Below are positions 1-58,110 of a DNA stretch of 64,000 nucleotides, one piece after another. The translations under genes and the position numbers were made by a program. The notes beneath the pieces were generated by a model that saw only the letters and a list, made by a program, of their open reading frames with translations, searched no databases and was not told the DNA's origin. This DNA comes from Gammaproteobacteria bacterium (lineage in GTDB: Bacteria > Pseudomonadota > Gammaproteobacteria > SZUA-140), in NCBI GenBank assembly GCA_015488555.1, contig WFNO01000122.1:12300-76299 (forward strand), in the 5' to 3' direction. Numbering within the stretch: position 1 is the first letter of the stretch; every line of letters begins with the position of its first letter.

Positions 1-92
1 GCGCGCCGACGAAGGCTATGCCGCCTATGTGCCCCTCGATCAGTAGATGTCCGCCACCATCACAGCATCGCTCCACTAGCACTAGCAGCAGA

Positions 93-232
93 CTGTTGAA
101 ATTCTACCCACGCGGCGCGATCCGGTGTTGAAAATGGCCTCGAAATGCACATTCACTGTTTGTAAGCTGCGATGATTTCTCGACCATTTTCGCCTTGTCT
201 CGCACTCGCCTGAGCGAATTTCAATAGCCTGC
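93..232. repeat. MITE-like palindromic intergenic repeat, copy 1 of 3 (~140 bp, terminal inverted repeat TGTTGAAATTC)
   Basis: About 85-90% identical to 15400..15539 and 57048..57184. It starts ctgttgaaattc and ends gaatttcaa(t/c)a(g/a)cctg. Internal segments gaaaatgg and ccattttc are complementary, so it can form a long hairpin. Confidence 0.8.
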
Positions 233-335: not shown

Positions 336-2864
336 TCAATGGATCTTGCGCCCGATCCCCCAGGGGGAACTACGCAACCAAGCCATGAGGTCCTGCACAG
401 ACAAAGGCTCGCTGAAATAATAGCCCTGAGCGGCGTCGCAATGGAGCCCCACCAGGAGCCGGTGGGTATTCTCGTCCTCCACCCCCTCTGCCACAACCTT
501 GAGCCCGATGTTGTGGGCCAGATCAATGGTGGAACGAACGATGACCGCATCGTTGTTGTCCACCGACATGCCGATAACGAAGGATTTATCGATCTTGATC
601 TCATCCACCGGCAACTGTTTCAGATAGGTCAAAGAGGAATAACCAGTGCCGAAATCGTCGATGGAGATGCGCACCCCCTGGGCGCTGAGCCGGTTGAGGA
701 TATCCAGGGCCCCTCCGGAGCCGGACATGATGGCTGTCTCCGTGATTTCGAGGCGCAGGCGCGCCGGATGGCCGGCCACCGCATCCATGATGCGGGCGAT
801 GTGCTCGGGAAAGTGTGCATCGTGAAGATTGTGCACGGAGAGATTGACGGCGATGCGCAGTTCGAGCCCCAGATCGAGCCATTCCTGGCTCTGCCGGGCA
901 GCTTCCTCCAAACCCCACAGGGTCAAGGGCCGGATGAGGCCGGTTTGCTCCGCCAAGGGAATGAAATCGTCCGGATACAGCATACCGTGCCGCGGATGAG
1001 GCCAGCGGGCCAAGGCCTCCACCCCCGTCACCCGCCCGCACTGCAGGTCCACCACCGGTTGATAATACAGCAATAAGTCTTTACGACTGATGGCCTCGTG
1101 GAGTTCGCGTTTGAGAGCCAGGTATTCCACGCTGTGTTGGTCCTGGGCGGTCTCGTACAGAGCGTAGCCATGACGCTTGCGCTTGGCGCTGTACATGGCC
1201 ACGTCGGCACAACGCAACAAAGTAGGGCCATCGCTACCGTGCAGAGGATAGAGAGCGATACCCACGCTGGCACCGAGGACAAAGGTCTGGCCCTCCAGCT
1301 CAATGGGTTGCTCCACTGCCTGGACGATCTTCTCTGCGATTCTTTCCGCCTGGGTCTGATCAGCAGTGGGCAGGAGGATGGCAAACTCATCACCGCCCAG
1401 CCGCGCCACGGTGTCGGAACCGCGTACCAGGGTGCGCATGCGCCGTGCCATCTCTTTGAGGATGAGATCCCCACAGTGGTGACCCAGAGTGTCGTTGATC
1501 TCCTTGAAGTGATCAAGATCCATCAACAACAGAGCCAAGGGCCTGTGGTTGCGCTGTGCCGCGCGGATGGCTTGATCCACGCGGTCTGCCAGCAAGGCCC
1601 GGTTGGGAAGACCGGTAAGCGCATCGTGCAGGGCCTGATACTCCAGGGCCTTGATCTGAGCCTTGAGTTCGGTGATGTCACGGATGATACCGATGAAACG
1701 GCGCGTCTGTCCCACCTGCATTTCGCTCAGGGCAATATCGATTGGAAATACCGTGCCGTCCTTACGCCGGCCTTCCGCCTCCCAACCAAATCGTGAAGGA
1801 CGCGATTCTTGCGCCTCCCGGTAACGACGCAGGTATTCATCGTACTCACTGCGATAGGGTTCAGGCATGAGCATTTTGACGTTGCGCCCTAGTAACTCCT
1901 CCTCGCGATAACCGAATAGGCGCGTCACAGCCAGGTTGATGGATTCGATGACGCCTTCTTCGTCAGTGGTGATGATGCCATCCGCCACGTTGTCCATCAC
2001 CGCTCGCACACGCACCTCGCTGCGAAACAGGCGTTGCTCCATGTCCTTGAACACTCGGCTTACCTGCCCCAGTTCGTCATTACGCTGTACCGGCAGGTCG
2101 GCACCGGCCTCTCCCTTGCCCAAACGGGTGAGTGCGTTTCGTAACTGGATGATGGGACGCACTACACTGAAGCGCAGCGCCAACCACAATACCAGTGCCA
2201 GGGTCAACACCAACACCACAGCAGCGGTCCACAGGTTGTATCGCATCGCCACGATCTGTTCCTGTACATCAGCCGTGGACAGACTCAGCTTGAGCACTCC
2301 GCGCCGGGGTGAAGGATCGTAACCGTGACAAGCCAGACAACGGACATCGCCCTCAATGGGCATGTAGAGCGTGATGGCCATGGCATCCTGTAGCAACCCA
2401 ACGTCGCCCTGCAAGGCTGTTTCGAAGGCCCGGTTGCGCGATTCCCGGCGGGGTGGCAGGATGGGTGCACGTTGAAAGAAATCACCGTTGCCATTCGCTG
2501 GGGGTAAGAGGTCATCCAAACGAGCGGCGGCTCCGGGGCGGGTGCGCAGATAGGCATTCACCGCCTGGACTGTCTCCAGATCCATAAAGGCCTCGGTACC
2601 GTCACGCCGCAGCACAGCGATGTCAAGCACCCCTTCCTCCCGCCGCATGCTGTCCAGCCACTTGCGCGCCAAAGTACCCTGGCCGCTGAGCATCAAGGTC
2701 CTCAAGCTGGCAAGCAGAGAACGGGCATGGACCTCGGCGTGGGCGACGCTTTCTTCTTGGAAAGAGCGGCTAAGCTGGCGTTCGATGAGCATGCCGGCCA
2801 CCAGCATCATCACGAACAGAACCACGGAGATCACGAAGGCGATGCGAGTTCCGAGGCTCTTCAT
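336..2864 (-). CDS. membrane sensor diguanylate cyclase/phosphodiesterase (HAMP-PAS-GGDEF-EAL)
   Basis: 853-aa ORF. N-terminal TM segments, a GGDEF motif (RLGGDEFAILL) and an EAL motif (EALARW). The ORF's first codon at 2897 is GTG; the ATG start at 2864 (MKSLGTRIAFVISVV) is preferred. Confidence 0.85.
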   Translation of the reverse strand: MKSLGTRIAFVISVVLFVMMLVAGMLIERQLSRSFQEESVAHAEVHARSLLASLRTLMLSGQGTLARKWLDSMRREEGVLDIAVLRRDGTEAFMDLETVQAVNAYLRTRPGAAARLDDLLPPANGNGDFFQRAPILPPRRESRNRAFETALQGDVGLLQDAMAITLYMPIEGDVRCLACHGYDPSPRRGVLKLSLSTADVQEQIVAMRYNLWTAAVVLVLTLALVLWLALRFSVVRPIIQLRNALTRLGKGEAGADLPVQRNDELGQVSRVFKDMEQRLFRSEVRVRAVMDNVADGIITTDEEGVIESINLAVTRLFGYREEELLGRNVKMLMPEPYRSEYDEYLRRYREAQESRPSRFGWEAEGRRKDGTVFPIDIALSEMQVGQTRRFIGIIRDITELKAQIKALEYQALHDALTGLPNRALLADRVDQAIRAAQRNHRPLALLLMDLDHFKEINDTLGHHCGDLILKEMARRMRTLVRGSDTVARLGGDEFAILLPTADQTQAERIAEKIVQAVEQPIELEGQTFVLGASVGIALYPLHGSDGPTLLRCADVAMYSAKRKRHGYALYETAQDQHSVEYLALKRELHEAISRKDLLLYYQPVVDLQCGRVTGVEALARWPHPRHGMLYPDDFIPLAEQTGLIRPLTLWGLEEAARQSQEWLDLGLELRIAVNLSVHNLHDAHFPEHIARIMDAVAGHPARLRLEITETAIMSGSGGALDILNRLSAQGVRISIDDFGTGYSSLTYLKQLPVDEIKIDKSFVIGMSVDNNDAVIVRSTIDLAHNIGLKVVAEGVEDENTHRLLVGLHCDAAQGYYFSEPLSVQDLMAWLRSSPWGIGRKIH

Positions 2865-14437: not shown

Positions 14438-15394
14438 ATGAGTAATGAAGCACTGGCCATGCTCCGGAACCGGCTCGCCGTTCGTATCCTGGGTCAGGAG
14501 GATCTCATCGAACGCCTGCTGGTAGGTCTTCTGGGCAGGGGACACCTCTTGCTGGAAGGCGTTCCAGGGCTGGCCAAGACCACCCTCGTACGGGCGCTGG
14601 CCGAGGGCCTGGCCCTGCGCTTCAAACGCATCCAGTTCACGCCGGACCTCATTCCCGGTGACATCACCGGTAGCGAGATCTTCCTGCCCCAGGAGGGCCG
14701 CTTTCGCTTCGCAGAGGGCCCTCTGTTTCACGACATCGTACTGGCAGACGAAATCAACCGGGCGCCGCCCAAGGTGCAATCGGCTCTGCTCGAGGCCATG
14801 GAGGAACGCCAAGTGACGGTGGGAGACCGCACCCGCCCCCTCTCCCCGGTCTTCACCGTCATCGCCACCCAGAACCCCATCGAACAGGAAGGCACCTATC
14901 CCCTGCCGGAGGCCCAGCTGGACCGTTTCTTCATGAAACTGCACGTGGACTATCCCGACGAGGACACCGAATTGGCCATCCTCCGCCAGGAAGGCCGGCC
15001 GGGACTGGTGACCGATGCTGAATCGGATACCACACTGGACGCCGAAACCCTGATGGCGGCACGCGCCGAGGCCGCCGCGGTGTACATGGACGAAATGCTG
15101 GAGCGCTATGTGGTGGCCCTGGTGCAATGCAGCCGGCGGCCCGCTGAATGGGACGCGGAACTGGCGGAGTGGCTCACCCGCGGGGCCTCGCCCCGCGCCA
15201 CGCTGGCCCTGGCACTGGCCGCCCGTTGCCGCGCCTATCTGCGTGCGCGCGACTTCGTCACGCCGGAAGATATCCTGGCGGTGGCCGGCGACGTGCTCCA
15301 TCACCGCCTCGGTCTGAGCTTCGCCGCTCGCAGCGCCGGCGTCGACGGCCGCCAGGCGGTGGCCCGATTGCTGGAAGTGGTTCCCGCTCCCTGA
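14438..15394 (+). CDS. MoxR-family AAA+ ATPase
   Basis: EGVPGLAKTTLVRALAEGL Walker A and MoxR-type organisation. First gene of a Bat-like operon. Confidence 0.9.
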   Translation: MSNEALAMLRNRLAVRILGQEDLIERLLVGLLGRGHLLLEGVPGLAKTTLVRALAEGLALRFKRIQFTPDLIPGDITGSEIFLPQEGRFRFAEGPLFHDIVLADEINRAPPKVQSALLEAMEERQVTVGDRTRPLSPVFTVIATQNPIEQEGTYPLPEAQLDRFFMKLHVDYPDEDTELAILRQEGRPGLVTDAESDTTLDAETLMAARAEAAAVYMDEMLERYVVALVQCSRRPAEWDAELAEWLTRGASPRATLALALAARCRAYLRARDFVTPEDILAVAGDVLHHRLGLSFAARSAGVDGRQAVARLLEVVPAP

Positions 15395-15399
15395 CAAGG

Positions 15400-15539
15400 C
15401 TGTTGAGATTCTCCTCATGCGGCGCGATCCGGCGTTGAAAATGGCCTCGAAATGCTCTTTTGCAATAAACTTACGCTTTCTCGGCCATTTTCGCCTGGTC
15501 TCGCGCTCGCCCGAGCGAATTCCAAATTCCAACAGCCTG
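15400..15539. repeat. MITE-like palindromic repeat, copy 2 of 3, inserted between moxR and the DUF58 gene
   Basis: Aligns with 93..232 and 57048..57184. Carries a short internal insertion near its 3' end. Confidence 0.75.
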
Positions 15540-15546
15540 CTGAGCC

Positions 15547-16464
15547 ATGAAGACCTCGGCCGCCACTGATCCGCGCCGCGCGCCCCTGGTGGACACGGCC
15601 ACCCTGGAAGGGCTGCTGCTACAGGTACAGGCCCACTGGCAGGCGCAGCGCCGGAGCCATCGCTTCGCGCGCCCCTACGCCGGTCCCCTGCCCGCCCTGT
15701 TGCGCGGCCAGGGCCTGGAACTGCACGATCGCCGGCCCTATCAGGCGGGCGACGATCTGCGCCACCTGGACTGGCGGGCCATGGCCCGCAGCGGCCGCCC
15801 GCTCACCAAGGTCTATCTGGAAGAGGGCGGCCGGGAACTGTTCCTGCTGCTGGACCGCCGCGCCGGCATGCGATTCGGCAGCCGGCACGAACCGAAAGCA
15901 GCCTGCGCCGCCCGCACCGCAGCCATCCTCGCCTTCGCTGCCCTGTGCGCCGGCGAGCGGACCGGAGGGATGGTGGTGGAAGGCGAAGCGCGCCACTTCC
16001 CGGCCAGCGCCACCCTGGCCGGCCTCCATCCCCTGTTGCAAGCCGCCGCTGCACCCCTGCCGGAGCGGCCGCCGCCCCCCTGCGAGCTCGCGCACCTGTG
16101 GCCCCGAGTGGCCCAGCACTGTCAGCCGGGCGTGCAGCTGTGTCTGATCAGCGACTTCCGCCGACTCGAGGACTGGCCACAAGAGGCCCTGCAGGGCCTG
16201 GCCCGGCGCTGCGAGATCCACGCCTTTCAGATTTGCGACCGCGGCGAGGCCTCCCTGCCCAAGCGGGGCCGCTTGTGCCTGCACGACGAGCAAGGGCGGG
16301 AATACCTGGTGGACTGCCGAGACGCCGCCCTGCGCCGGGACTACGCCGCCGCCATCGAAGGCTGGCAACGGCGGCTGCAGGCCCGGTTGCACGCCGCTGG
16401 CATCCCCCTGACGGTGGTCTATAATCACCGGGACACCTTCCGGCAGTTGATTCAATCCCACTAG
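15547..16464 (+). CDS. DUF58 protein (MoxR partner, VWA-like)
   Basis: DLRHLDWRAMARSGRPLTKVYLEEGGRELFLLLDRRAGMRFG, the conserved DUF58 core. Confidence 0.8.
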   Translation: MKTSAATDPRRAPLVDTATLEGLLLQVQAHWQAQRRSHRFARPYAGPLPALLRGQGLELHDRRPYQAGDDLRHLDWRAMARSGRPLTKVYLEEGGRELFLLLDRRAGMRFGSRHEPKAACAARTAAILAFAALCAGERTGGMVVEGEARHFPASATLAGLHPLLQAAAAPLPERPPPPCELAHLWPRVAQHCQPGVQLCLISDFRRLEDWPQEALQGLARRCEIHAFQICDRGEASLPKRGRLCLHDEQGREYLVDCRDAALRRDYAAAIEGWQRRLQARLHAAGIPLTVVYNHRDTFRQLIQSH

Positions 16465-30807: not shown

Positions 30808-31415
30808 CGGCCGCAATTCATGGTGGGGGGAAAGGCCACGTTCCCGTGACAGACTCCGCAATACTCTCCCTGGATGATGGCAGACATGGAAACGGGATTG
30901 GCGCCCTTCTGGGGAATAAAGATGAGCGGATGGCAATTGGCACAGGTCAGCCACTCGGTGTGCTGGCGGTGCGGGAAACGCACGTGCGGCATGGAGGCGG
31001 TGTCCTTGAAAATGATATCGAAGTCCACTGGAAACATATCTCCCTCACCGTCCACGGACTTGCGGGGATCAATGAGCCCCATCTCCAGAGTCTTGACCCA
31101 GTCGATGATACCCTGGGAATCACGTGGAAAATTGGCCATGGCTTCGTAGGGTTGCTGCAACACCGCCACTGCCTCACTCGCAGGATCGTGAATGCCATCC
31201 TCAGCGATGGGCACGATGTCGCCTGTCAACTGAAAGTGCTTGCCGCGCGACCAGAACGGCTTAGCCACATCGGCCGGATTCTGCAAGAGCTGCGGGGTCT
31301 TGGCTGGCGTGGCGGCCATGGCTATCGGCCATACCGGAAGGAAAATGGCGAGACACACGGCCCACAAGAGCCTCAAACCGCCGCTCACTCGTTTTCCACT
31401 TTGGCACCCGTTCAT
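30768..31415 (-). CDS. periplasmic trihaem c-type cytochrome (family A)
   Basis: CANCH, CGVCH and CGRCH, signal peptide. Paralog of 33399..34064, sharing DGIHD...FPHRQHTEWL.C.NCHP.IFIPQKGAN...CGVCHG.VAFP. Confidence 0.8.
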   Translation of the reverse strand: MNGCQSGKRVSGGLRLLWAVCLAIFLPVWPIAMAATPAKTPQLLQNPADVAKPFWSRGKHFQLTGDIVPIAEDGIHDPASEAVAVLQQPYEAMANFPRDSQGIIDWVKTLEMGLIDPRKSVDGEGDMFPVDFDIIFKDTASMPHVRFPHRQHTEWLTCANCHPLIFIPQKGANPVSMSAIIQGEYCGVCHGNVAFPPTMNCGRCHSVPNETRLLR

Positions 31416-33398: not shown

Positions 33399-34064
33399 TT
33401 ATTTCCAAGGATTCTTCAACGTCGCCTCACTGAGTGGCGGTTGCCAATCCGCTGGCTTGGGCTTGGAGTGGCACTTCTTGCATGTCTTGGTTTCGATAGG
33501 GAAGGCCACCTTGCCATGACAAACACCACATTTCTGCCCCAGGAGAATGGCCGACATGTTGATCTGGTTGGCCCCCTTCTGGGGAATGAAGATAGCCGGA
33601 TGGCAATTGGAACAGAGCAGCCATTCCGTGTGCTGGCGATGCGGAAATACCACGTCGGGTACAGAAGCCTTGACCGGCCGTACGATGTCCAAATCCATCA
33701 CGAAAGGCTCGGCATTAGAATCGAGCAAGTCCCAGCGTGGCTTGATCAGCCCCTCATCCAGGGCCTTGACCCAATCTACGTGGTTGCCAAAACTAGTCCT
33801 GGGCAATCCCTCGTATGCCTCCAAAGGAGGCTGCAGATTGAAAGTGGCCTCGTTGGTGGTATCGTGGATACCGTCTTCCCACGGTGGCGCATTCGGGTTT
33901 TTGGGTTTCTTCAGATTGAGGTTGAAGGTGTTGGCCGCCGATACCTCTCCCATCATCAACAACCCCTGAATCGCGTTACCGGCTGCCGGTACCGAAGTAC
34001 TCCAAACGGCGGCGATCAGCAGCACAGCGCTGGAAACGATGACGAACCCGTTCTTCAAACTCAT
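33399..34064 (-). CDS. periplasmic trihaem c-type cytochrome (family A paralog)
   Basis: CSNCH, CGVCH and CKKCH. Signal peptide. GGGGAGAG RBS. Confidence 0.82.
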   Translation of the reverse strand: MSLKNGFVIVSSAVLLIAAVWSTSVPAAGNAIQGLLMMGEVSAANTFNLNLKKPKNPNAPPWEDGIHDTTNEATFNLQPPLEAYEGLPRTSFGNHVDWVKALDEGLIKPRWDLLDSNAEPFVMDLDIVRPVKASVPDVVFPHRQHTEWLLCSNCHPAIFIPQKGANQINMSAILLGQKCGVCHGKVAFPIETKTCKKCHSKPKPADWQPPLSEATLKNPWK

Positions 34065-41634: not shown

Positions 41635-41708
41635 TGGCTGGGGAACCAGGATTCGAACCTGGATTAACGGAGTCAGAGTCCGCTGTCCTGCCGTTAGACG
41701 ATTCCCCA
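41635..41708 (-). tRNA. tRNA-Gln (anticodon CUG)
   Basis: Reverse complement reads TGGGGAATCGTCTAACGGCAGGACAGCGGACTCTGACTCCGTTAATCCAGGTTCGAATCCTGGTTCCCCAGCCA. The acceptor stem pairs over 7 bp. Anticodon loop CTCTGAC with CTG at positions 34-36. T-loop GGTTCGAATCC. CCA is encoded. Confidence 0.85.
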
Positions 41709-55539: not shown

Positions 55540-56271
55540 CTATCCACCCCGTTCCGCGACCCAGTCCGCATCCGCTGCATCCCGGGGGGCCAGCAGATTC
55601 GGCAGTTGCGCCAGAGAATCGACGACCGCATCGGGCCGTGCCTCGCGGATGTCCTGGCCGTGGTTGTAACCATAGGGCACGCAGACTACGCGGAAACCGG
55701 CGGCGCGCGCCGCCTGCACGTCGTTGATGGAATCACCCACCATGAGGGCGTGTTGCGGCGCCACGCCGAAGAAGCAGGCCGCATGGAGCAAGGGCGCCGG
55801 ATCCGGTTTCTTGCGCGGCAGGGTGTCTCCGCTGACCACGAGGCGAAAATAGCGGTCCAGGCCCAGTTGCTCCAGCAGCGGCTCCGTGAAACGCGCCGGT
55901 TTGTTGGTGACACAGGCCAGGGGATAACCCGCCGCCTCCAGTGCCTTCAGGCCCGCCTCGACACCCGGGAAAGGGCGGCTGCGCCGACATACGTTTTCCT
56001 GATAGGCTTGCAGGAATATGGGGTAACCCCGCTGGAACAGTTCTTCGGGCGGCTCGCCCTCGTAACGCCCCACCAGGGCCCGGCGCACCAGGCGCTCGGC
56101 ACCGTTGCCGATCCACTCCCGCACCCGCGCTTCCGGATGCGGTGGCATACCCAAGGCCCGCAGCATCGCATTGACGGCATCCGCCAGGTCAGGCACCGTG
56201 TCCACCAGCGTGCCGTCCAGGTCGATGAGGATCATCTCCGGCGCAGGCAGCCGGACAGACCCCCGGTTCAT
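55540..56271 (-). CDS. gph: phosphoglycolate phosphatase (HAD)
   Basis: [14 protein letters not shown] motif I and [16 protein letters not shown] motif IV. Confidence 0.82.
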
Positions 56272-56948
56272 CCCGCAGGCACCTTGGCCAGCTCCGCTCG
56301 CATAGCGGCGATGGTGGCCCGATAGTCGTCGGTGCCGAAAATGGCGGAACCGGCCACGAAGGTATCGGCACCGGCCTCGGCGATGGCCTGGATGTTGTCG
56401 ACCTTGACCCCGCCGTCGATCTCCAGCCGGATGTCCAGACCGCTGTCGTCGATGAGACGGCGCGCCTCGCGCAGTTTGTCCAGCGCCGAAGGGATGAAAC
56501 TCTGGCCGCCGAAACCGGGGTTCACCGACATCAGCAACACCATGTCCACCTTGTCCATCACGTAGCGCAGATAATCCAGGGGAGTGGCCGGATTGAACAC
56601 CAGGCCGGACTTGCAGCCACAGTCGCGGATGAGCTGCAGGGTGCGGTCGATGTGCTCGCTGGCCTCGGGATGAAATGTGATATACGTGGCCCCAGCCTTG
56701 GCGAAGTCGGGAATGATACGATCCACTGGCTTGACCATGAGATGTACGTCGATGTCAGCCTCTACTCCGTGCTTGCGCAGGGCCTCGCACACCAACGGCC
56801 CGATGGTGAGATTGGGCACGTAATGGTTGTCCATGACATCGAAGTGGATGATGTCGGCGCCCGCTTCCAGCACGGCGTTCACCTCCTCTCCCAGGCGGGC
56901 GAAATCCGCGGACAGAATGGACGGCGCAATGAGATAGTCTTTCTTCAT
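56268..56948 (-). CDS. rpe: ribulose-phosphate 3-epimerase
   Basis: [17 protein letters not shown]...[16 protein letters not shown]...[14 protein letters not shown]. Confidence 0.93.
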
Positions 56949-57047
56949 GTCAGCCCCCAGCGTCACTTTGGCGTCACTTTCGAGTTCGAAAACAAGCGGA
57001 TAACTTTAACCTATCGGACAGCGCTTTGCACGGCCGCCCTTAACCGG

Positions 57048-57184
57048 CTGTTGAAATTCTACTCACGCGACGCGATCCGGTGTTAAAAATGGCCTCGAAA
57101 TGCTCATTTACCATTTGTAAACTGCGCTTTTTCAGCCATTTTCGCCTTGTCTCGCACTCGCCTGAGCGAATTTCAACAAGCCTG
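57048..57184. repeat. MITE-like palindromic repeat, copy 3 of 3, in the divergent rpe / hydrolase intergenic region
   Basis: Aligns to copies 1 and 2 with the same TGTTGAAATTC...GAATTTCAAC termini. Confidence 0.8.
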
Positions 57185-57219: not shown

Positions 57220-58110
57220 ATGAAGTCGCGCCCGTACGTCTTGTTGTTGCTGTCGGCTGCGGCGGCCGGTTCGCTGCCGGCCGCCGCAGCCACACCAGCG
57301 CCACCCGCCACGGATCCGGCACCTGCGGCGACTCCCTCTTCCGAACGGCCACCTGCAACCGCACCGGAAGAAGTACTGGCAAGGCTGCTCGCAGGCCGGC
57401 TGGCGCCCGGTACGGAACTGCTGTGGCTGGAAGGGGACGGCGGCCGTCATCTGGCGCTGCTACGCCCAGCCGCCCGCGCCCGGCCGCAGGGCAACGTCCT
57501 GCTGCTGCCCGGCCGCAGCGGACAGCCGGCCTGGCCCGAAGTCGTGAGACCTCTACTATGGACGTTGTCCCGTTACGGCTGGAACGTGCTGGCCCCCTAT
57601 CTGCCCCTGCCGCCGGACGATCCCGAGGACCGCGAGGATTGGTTACTGGACATCGAGCAGCGCCTGGACGCCGCCCGCACCCATCTCGCCGGCCTCAGGG
57701 CCGACGGCCCTCTGGTGGCTGTGGGTTACGAACACGGTGCGGCCATCGCCCAGCACTACGCGCAGCGCCGCCCCCAGGCCCTGCACGCTTTGGCCGCCAT
57801 CAGCCCCATGCCGCTGCTGGGCGAGGACCATCTGCCCCTGCCCGTTCTACCCCTACTGGACATGCACGGCACACTCGAGTTACCTCACATCCAGGCCTTG
57901 GTGGCAAAGCGCGCCTTGCATGCCCGGCGCCAGGGACGTTTCTCGCCGGGCGCCCATCCCTCTTATCGGCTGATCACCATCGCCGGTGCGGAACACGGGT
58001 ACCGAGGCTTCGAGGCCGAGCTGGGCAAGCGCCTGCTGGGCTGGCTGCGCAGTCAGACGGAAGCGAACGGACCCATCACGCACTCGCCGATCACAGATCC
58101 AGGGCCTTAA
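57220..58110 (+). CDS. secreted alpha/beta-hydrolase-fold protein (DUF3530-like)
   Basis: Signal peptide MKSRPYVLLLLSAAAAGSLPAAAA, a Pro/Ala-rich linker and a hydrolase-like core. Confidence 0.55.
   Translation: MKSRPYVLLLLSAAAAGSLPAAAATPAPPATDPAPAATPSSERPPATAPEEVLARLLAGRLAPGTELLWLEGDGGRHLALLRPAARARPQGNVLLLPGRSGQPAWPEVVRPLLWTLSRYGWNVLAPYLPLPPDDPEDREDWLLDIEQRLDAARTHLAGLRADGPLVAVGYEHGAAIAQHYAQRRPQALHALAAISPMPLLGEDHLPLPVLPLLDMHGTLELPHIQALVAKRALHARRQGRFSPGAHPSYRLITIAGAEHGYRGFEAELGKRLLGWLRSQTEANGPITHSPITDPGP

Follow-up and report, generated by a model that had tools for sequence, protein, structure and literature searches.

The stretch of DNA analysed here, 64,000 nucleotides of contig WFNO01000122.1 (hereafter the window), comes from an uncultured gammaproteobacterium of 61.9% GC and contains three related palindromic repeats of 141–146 bp. 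Copy 1 is located between two convergent genes, an NHL-repeat gene that ends near position 55 and a GGDEF-EAL gene (336–2864, minus strand, with its ATG at 2864). Copy 2 is located between moxR (14438–15394) and a DUF58 gene (15547–16464), and copy 3 between the divergent rpe (56268–56966, minus strand) and DUF3530 (57220–58110) genes. A first-pass annotation of the window had placed the repeats correctly in a 3′ region, in the Bat operon between moxR and the DUF58 gene, and in a divergent promoter region, and had suggested that they could be MITEs (miniature transposable elements with inverted repeats). This suggestion is supported by their size, their non-coding sequence, their inverted ends, 4-bp target duplications, an empty site, and at least 120 relatives elsewhere. 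The three repeats are very probably copies of a non-autonomous transposon that uses the ends of IS5-family insertion sequences.

The repeats are present on the plus strand at the places first given for them, and they are related to each other, with pairwise identities of 81–87% over 132–143 nt (E values of 1e-29 to 1e-45, from blastn and MAFFT). All three have the same orientation. The similarity ends at the borders of the elements, and the flanks of the three copies are unrelated. A covariance model built mostly from other organisms, with copies 1 and 2 outside the training alignment, gives scores of 82.6 bits for copy 3, 54.9 bits for copy 2 and 52.5 bits for copy 1. A fourth copy in the window turned up neither with word-7 blastn nor when both strands were searched, unfiltered, with the covariance model; the next match of that search has a score of 7.7 bits.

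The shared ends CTGTTGAAATTC...GAATTTCAACAG and the inner stem GAAAATGGCC...GGCCATTTTC are as described in the first-pass annotation. Its placement of the copies also stands, but its left borders do not, as the inverted repeat reaches 4–7 nt further out, to CAGGC. This extension is known from relatives elsewhere that show it, and it sets the bounds of the elements (Table 1). Inverted ends of the CAGGCTGTTGAAATTC type pair with each other in all three copies. The elements are non-coding, too short to carry a transposase gene, and within the size range of MITEs (<500 bp).

As had been expected, each copy is predicted to fold into a long, imperfect hairpin. The RNA fold of the plus strand has energies of −39.7, −51.0 and −47.7 kcal/mol for copies 1, 2 and 3 (z = −2.2, −4.7 and −6.6); for the strand complementary to it, the energies are near −57 kcal/mol (z between −4.8 and −7.0). 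Folded as DNA, copies 2 and 3 have z scores near −6, and copy 1 only −1.2. The sole Rfam match in the window is a tRNA, and copy 3 and a relative (L025), searched at E values up to 10, give only chance-level matches. An origin from a tRNA or rRNA fragment, or a lack of copies elsewhere, had been named as grounds against the MITE proposal; no such similarity was found with Rfam, and related copies exist elsewhere.

Copy 2 carries a precise signature of insertion. The spacer between moxR and the DUF58 gene is 152 bp in length and consists of the element, which begins directly after the moxR stop codon and lies 7 nt ahead of the DUF58 start codon. The 4-bp direct repeat on its two sides, CTGA/CTGA, is perfect and non-palindromic. 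In the two closest syntenic relatives retrieved (L048 and L050) there is no spacer, and the stop codon of moxR overlaps the start codon of the DUF58 gene. Both share the gene order ccm-moxR-DUF58-DUF4381-VWA-VWA/TPR-BatD, and with a MoxR identity of 74% they are relatives rather than conspecific strains. Excision of the element together with one CTGA reconstructs the pre-insertion site, ...GCTCC CTGA GCC ATG, and the C-terminus of MoxR (VVPAP*) is unchanged. By this comparison of sequences, the overlapping arrangement in the relatives is the equivalent of the empty site.

The insertion of copy 2 would have uncoupled the translation of the two genes and put a stable 145-nt hairpin into the operon mRNA. 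In a 201-nt context the predicted folding energy is −72.7 kcal/mol, compared to −51 kcal/mol for the element alone, and the start codon is located outside the main hairpin. Such a split of a translationally coupled pair matters for the annotation of the moxR/Bat operon and for how its expression is read. The right end of copy 2 (15518–15532) has an internal duplication, AATTCCAA ATTCCAA, that breaks the pairing with the left end, consistent with decay.

Duplications of 4 bp are found across the family. Among 117 elements (114 extracted full-length elements and the three window copies), 33 have ends that pair at 10 or more of 12 positions together with identical 4-bp flanks, compared to 6.3 in a shifted control. 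The flanks of 22 of these 33 are CTAG (7), TTAA (6), TTAG (6) or CTAA (3). A copy of the same subfamily as those in the window (L029) is flanked by CTAG on both sides.

The ends also lead to a candidate partner enzyme. Plasmids were searched by blastn with the 49-nt left end of a Pseudomonas copy. About 40 plasmids, among them rhizobial and Ralstonia ones, contain the exact 19-mer CTAGCAGGCTGTTGAAAAA, and plasmids of Azospirillum and Methylomonas contain near-exact matches of 24–27 nt. The Methylomonas koyamae plasmid pLM6 contains a complete 1355-bp element (L054), with inverted ends CAGGCTGGTGAAAAAC, flanks CTAG/CTAG and, after the end, an annotated gene for an IS5-family transposase. Its 365-residue product matches the NCBIfam model NF033581 ('IS5 family transposase') with 268 bits, against a cut-off of 140, as well as Pfam DUF772 and DDE_Tnp_1. 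The architecture and the CTAG/CTAG flanks recur in a complete element of 1543 bp in S. meliloti pSmeSM11c (L051), which encodes a homolog of this transposase, as does a third locus (L052). The ends of the full insertion sequences, CAGGCTG(T/G)TGAAAAA, are near-identical to CAGGCTGTTGAAATTC, and the MITE ends match those of L054 at 15 of 16 positions. Elements of the L054/L051 type are therefore the likely source of the type of transposase that moves type-A MITEs. As far as can be read from the DNA, the elements carry IS5-family ends and make 4-bp duplications, and at least one of their insertions is absent from relatives.

In the proposed mechanism, an IS5-family DDE transposase from a full-length element elsewhere would bind the ends of about 16 nt, CAGGCTGTTGAAA..., and mobilise the element in trans. 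The element would be moved into a 4-bp target of the CTAG, TTAA, TTAG or CTAA type, which would be duplicated upon insertion.

Copy 3 is present at the same site in a relative (L186) with a DUF3530 protein that is 84% identical, where it is flanked by TTAA/TTAA. The target duplication matches at three of four positions in the window and at all four in this ortholog. Because the relative has the element at the orthologous site with TTAA on both sides, copy 3 is an old, vertically inherited insertion with TTAA as its original duplication. It is also 85% identical to a metagenome copy (L095) that has TTAA/TTAA flanks. Copy 3 was found to have no site resembling a promoter or a terminator. Nearby, an 11–12-nt tandem repeat, (A/G)GCGTCACTTT, is located at 56958–56992, directly upstream of the start of rpe, a minus-strand gene. 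The window has two units and L186 has three, showing that the copy number varies in the 5′ region of rpe.

Copy 1 is the most decayed of the three. It has CTAG at its left border (82–85) and CCAC at its right (232–235), so that the duplication is not preserved, and its central motif has three substitutions. The left end (75–91) shows tandem duplications, CACTAG CACTAG and CAG CAG, which may be scars of the insertion site or of slippage at the element end.

The window copies are most likely immobile relics now, in view of their divergence (13–20%), their eroded ends and flanks, the mutated centres of copies 1 and 2, the sharing of copy 3 with a relative, and the lack of a transposase nearby. 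For this genome the result is modest, with three intergenic oddities explained as transposon relics. As a finding about the window, three decayed IS5-type MITEs are ordinary; they belong to a very widespread family, with an unusually conserved, covarying centre and interchangeable ends, that was not found described.

A scan of genome contigs with the 18-mer AAAATGGCCTCGAAATGC gave 41 loci, four of which are real (L014, L025, L029 and L040), the rest being chance matches; the same 18-mer gave nothing in viral contigs. Copies that share the core are found in a gammaproteobacterial metagenome-assembled genome (MAG), where the copy is of the window subfamily and has CTAG/CTAG flanks, in two Pseudomonas MAGs and in Natronospirillum. 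A blastn search of plasmids with a window copy gave nothing, and only the Pseudomonas-type copy gave matches. Unannotated copies are located on plasmids of P. veronii, P. aeruginosa, the P. syringae group and Halomonas. The family was recovered more broadly with the pattern AATGCTCATTTAC-N4-5-GTAAACT, which finds 8 viral contigs and at least 120 metagenome contigs. The metagenome loci that carry the centre range from 32% to 71% GC.

Several contigs have 2–4 copies of their own, and 7 of 88 contigs end inside an element (L084, L091, L138, L107, L073, L099 and L127); both are expected of a multicopy repeat, which breaks assemblies. The covariance model and the pattern can be used to annotate this repeat in metagenomes. 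Clusters or direct tandems of elements are also observed (L113, 1473–1695; L094, 1976–2226 and 4960–5207), with four copies in 5.7 kb in L094. Larger variants (L045, L060, L077, L085, L093, L156, L162 and L182) contain extra nested GC-rich hairpins, for example GGCTCGTGCGCGAGTCCGATC and GGCTGGAACGCCAGCCCGGTC. These are positioned between the outer stem and the centre and are sometimes mirrored on the other arm.

The ends of the elements are more variable than their interiors. The 114 full-length elements have at least eight IS5-like end types, including CAGGCTGTTGAAAAAC, GGGTCTGTACGAAAAC, GGCAACCTCCGAAAACCCC, GGGACTTCTAAAAATCC, GGAACCTCTGAAAAAC and GAGGGTGTCTACAAAAT, the last of which resembles that of ISPsy19. 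Elements with type-A and type-E ends are 87.5% identical over the inner 120 nt, whereas only 3–4 of the outer 10 nt are shared at each end. For one pair with this identity inside (L145 and L152), the outer 10 nt are GGAACCTCTG and CAGGCTGTTG, respectively. With a conserved body and differing outer 10 nt, the terminal ends appear to have been exchanged.

The most conserved part of the family is the central segment of about 60 nt, rather than the ends. It was analysed in an alignment of 90 sequences, in which the outer stems were specified by hand and then tested against slid and shuffled controls; RNAalifold on the MAFFT alignment recovered only the invariant tip helix. Three outer stems make up the hairpin together with this helix, TTTAC/GTAAA, whose sequence the search pattern fixes. 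Paired cells make up 85.6% of the total, as against 31–52% with slid partners, and there are 247 double-change cells, as against 62–104. The covariation score is 0.338, compared to 0.136 or less in the controls, and none of 500 shuffles reached the observed values. Between the stems lie conserved, unpaired motifs, CTGCGTT, TC/TC, TGCTCA/CTSCGC and GCCTTG. The conservation of these flanking motifs and of the stems is not imposed by the search pattern. The alignment shows, at the level of sequence, a centre that is maintained by compensatory change.

Several identities for the centre were judged by eye and set aside as poor fits. These are a mini-ORF (open reading frame; ATG CTC ATT TAC NNN NNG TAA), an integron attC or dif/Xer site, a bidirectional terminator, for which the T-tracts give way by covariation to G-C pairs in roughly a quarter of the sequences, and an IHF site, for which the best match misses the key C.

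A conserved, covarying hairpin could also belong to a structured RNA, small or cis-regulatory, that rides on captured transposon ends and serves the host or the element through processing, stabilisation or regulation of neighbouring transcripts. The covarying stems and the conserved unpaired internal loops are as seen in functional RNAs, and copy 2, within an operon, is certainly transcribed. Moreover, in 104 of the 114 elements the complementary strand has the more stable fold, by a mean of 7.9 kcal/mol, and its conserved loops are purine-rich, for example tandem GA/GA. However, this asymmetry is due to pyrimidine-rich mismatches on the plus strand (460 Y:Y vs 157 R:R) and not to wobble pairs. 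The G:T and A:C mismatches are balanced, 189 vs 188 in the arms and 47 vs 68 in the covarying stems, so that the signature of a single transcribed strand is absent. Without an excess of G:T over A:C, the asymmetry was dropped as an RNA signature. There is also no Rfam match even at E = 10, and no orientation bias relative to flanking ORFs, with 14 sense and 19 antisense elements in tandem contexts as assigned by a crude ORF caller. Copy 3 is devoid of promoter-like and terminator-like sites, and convergent, divergent and intra-operon contexts occur alike. An RNA function for the centre is improbable, though the best placed of the alternatives to a transposon of the IS5 type.

For the IS5-type MITE, the centre is better described as a putative DNA-level, cis-acting structural module that would aid the mobilisation of very short elements. 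It could do so by forming a cruciform or hairpin, or as the site of a bending protein. A wider proposal, which we regard as possible and hold only tentatively, is that the segment of about 60 nt is a functional cis module, a 'universal chassis', and that the family is one ancient non-autonomous lineage that has persisted in phylogenetically distant bacteria through exchange of no more than its outer 10 nt or so, which would allow many different IS5-family transposases to recognise it. As candidates for what such a centre would supply, we name hairpin or cruciform formation, the binding of a bending protein that joins ends only 140 bp apart in one synaptic complex, and an active single-strand fold. 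In the usual MITE families the ends are conserved and the interior is free; in this family the interior is conserved and the ends are exchanged among IS5-like types. Should the centre be needed in cis, this family would offer a simple, testable system for what short transposons need beyond their ends, and for the switching of helper transposases.

A number of observations weigh against the assignment of the repeats as MITEs with an IS5-family partner and a selected centre. For copy 1, no duplication can be recognised, and its fold as DNA does not surpass those of shuffles. No relative of the L054-type transposase was found in the window or within 847 kb of metagenome and viral loci, and the 9.6 kb of host contig beyond the left end of the window contain no further copy and no matching IS5-family element; the partner in the host genome is an assumed one. 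Compared to the autonomous elements found (GAAAAAC/G), the window subfamily has 2–3 different positions in its ends (GAAATTC), and an insertion sequence bearing exactly these ends was not found. Past the ends of about 16 nt, the MITE interior is unrelated to the insertion sequences examined, and a candidate subterminal similarity between these and the MITE arms was not convincing. Mobility has not been observed for this family. As for the centre, the search pattern itself fixes 20 nt of it, which inflates its apparent invariance, and template switching at a quasi-palindrome could keep the arms complementary in the absence of selection.

The flanks bear on a second alternative, MITEs of the IS630/Tc1-mariner type, for which the target is TA, frequently as part of CTAG, and for which no more than the TA is duplicated. 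Many of the copies lie between C-TA-G or T-TA-A flanks, with a first inner base that could be assigned to the inverted repeat, and one (L014) reads better as TA + AAAACCTC...GAGGTTTT + TA. On the other hand, the CTGA/CTGA repeat of copy 2 has no TA, and the non-palindromic 4-bp direct repeats CTAA and TTAG recur, for example in L124 and L070. In addition, the full-length elements with these ends encode an enzyme of the IS5 family (DUF772, DDE_Tnp_1), not of the IS630 type. The TA-only duplication, an idea that came from the CTAG flanks, was dropped on the basis of these repeats and the transposase; the IS630 assignment is largely refuted and now very unlikely.

Equally unlikely are palindromes of the REP/REPIN type whose spread is due to a RAYT transposase (an IS200-like tyrosine enzyme), or REP-like elements domesticated by the host as mRNA stabilisers or as gyrase or IHF sites. 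As with REPINs, the repeats are palindromes in intergenic positions, with a long hairpin whose tip varies, and 20 of 62 classified contexts are between convergent genes, compared to 9 between divergent genes (assigned by the same caller). However, REPs are GC-rich units of 20–40 nt with conserved heads and without target duplications, whereas the elements here are 141–146 bp, with 4-bp duplications and IS5-family terminal repeats. The conservation is also reversed, as it is the centre that is conserved and the ends that vary, and a role of benefit to the host fits poorly with the decay seen in the mutated centres of copies 1 and 2. The first-pass annotation had listed REP-like, mRNA-stabilising and insulating roles beside its MITE proposal; these find no support, with no promoter-like or terminator-like site in copy 3 and no family-wide orientation bias.

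Local segmental duplication or chance similarity, for which the shared orientation and the spacing within 57 kb might speak, is already refuted by the unrelated flanks, by the copies in Pseudomonas, Halomonas, Natronospirillum and at least 120 metagenome contigs, and by the precise insertion signature of copy 2.

Table 1. Positions of the three elements in the window, with their inverted ends, flanking target sequences and central motif.
Feature	Position	Strand	Remarks
MITE copy 1	86..231	+	146 bp; most decayed; between convergent genes; covariance match 103–211
Left inverted end of copy 1, CAGCAGACTGTTGAAATTC, with extra CAG	86..104	+	pairs with 216–231 in folds
Right inverted end of copy 1, GAATTTCAATAGCCTG	216..231	+	
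Left target-site duplication of copy 2, CTGA	15391..15394	+	includes the moxR stop codon TGA
MITE copy 2	15395..15539	+	145 bp; covariance match 15411–15512
Left inverted end of copy 2, CAAGGCTGTTGAGATTC	15395..15411	+	
Right inverted end of copy 2, GAATTCCAAATTCCAACAGCCTG	15517..15539	+	with small internal duplication AATTCCAA
Right target-site duplication of copy 2, CTGA	15540..15543	+	
Left flank of copy 3, TTAA	57040..57043	+	target duplication
MITE copy 3	57044..57184	+	141 bp; best preserved; covariance match 57058–57163
Left inverted end of copy 3, CCGGCTGTTGAAATTC	57044..57059	+	
Central motif, AATGCTCATTTAC-N5-GTAAACT	57099..57123	+	intact in copy 3; flanked by covarying stem AAAATGGCC/GGCCATTTT
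Right inverted end of copy 3, GAATTTCAACAAGCCTG	57168..57184	+	
Right flank of copy 3, TCAA	57185..57188	+	TTAA in the ortholog L186

Other features of the window were also observed. The region 4438–25394 (L042) contains a full cytochrome c maturation operon (ccmA-H and thiol-disulfide proteins), divergent from the complete moxR-DUF58-DUF4381-VWA-VWA/TPR-BatD operon, and multihaem cytochrome genes are located upstream of the window. The nearest named matches of MoxR are from Gammaproteobacteria, Chromatiales and Candidatus Tenderia. A tRNA-Gln gene (anticodon CTG) is located at 41635–41708 on the minus strand (41638–41708 by the Rfam bounds) and is the sole match of Rfam or ARAGORN in the window. 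A pair of 199-nt direct repeats (30829–31027 and 33499–33697), 72% identical and 2670 nt apart, is probably paralogous coding sequence.

Among known systems, REPINs and REPs with their RAYTs resemble the window family in being intergenic, hairpin-forming repeats in Pseudomonas and relatives. They differ in having conserved ends, a variable loop, no target duplication and a tyrosine HUH enzyme, the opposite pattern to that of the window family with its 4-bp duplications. The Correia/NEMIS elements of Neisseria and the ERIC/IRU elements of enterobacteria are palindromic MITEs of 100–150 bp that are found in intergenic and intra-operon positions and form long hairpins in transcripts. Correia elements have a central IHF site that is functional, and they are cut by RNase III (PMC10969869). 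They are a precedent for a conserved, functional centre, and both Correia and ERIC are precedents for palindromic MITEs within operons. However, their sequences, ends and duplications (TA for Correia) are different, and each is confined to one genus or family, in comparison to the 32–71% GC range and the several end types of the window family.

No Rfam family for the conserved centre was found, nor any paper describing it in literature searches by core sequence strings and by keywords, the latter of which gave only general MITE papers. One published repeat fits by its description. R178 of P. fluorescens is 101 bp in length, with 61.9% GC and 'internal' 11-bp inverted repeats, and, of the intergenic repeat families in the three P. 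fluorescens genomes studied, is the only one that occurs in every genome, with 18, 28 and 9 copies (Silby et al. 2009; PMC2718517). Its size and structure, compared by the published description, fit the conserved interior of the window family. R178 may be the same family, and it or an ISfinder entry may already cover the elements described here.

The IS5-family elements with CAGGCTG(T/G)TGAAAAA ends (L054 and L051) share the terminal 16 nt or so and the CTAG 4-bp duplication with the MITEs. Unlike the MITEs, they are 1.3–1.5 kb in length and encode a transposase, their subterminal sequence is unrelated, and they have no central hairpin. The closest functional analogue is MITEPsy1 of P. syringae pv. 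phaseolicola, which has IS5-like ends attributed to ISPsy2, a CTAG/YTAA target and a 4-bp duplication, and for which transposition was shown experimentally (Bardaji et al. 2011; PMC3189936). MITEPsy1 is 100 nt in length and has the ends GGAAGGTCTGAAAAAGCC; it was rejected as a member of the same family, as the copy on p1448A-A has these other ends and no such conserved centre. It is like the window elements in being small and non-coding, with IS5-like ends and a 4-bp duplication.

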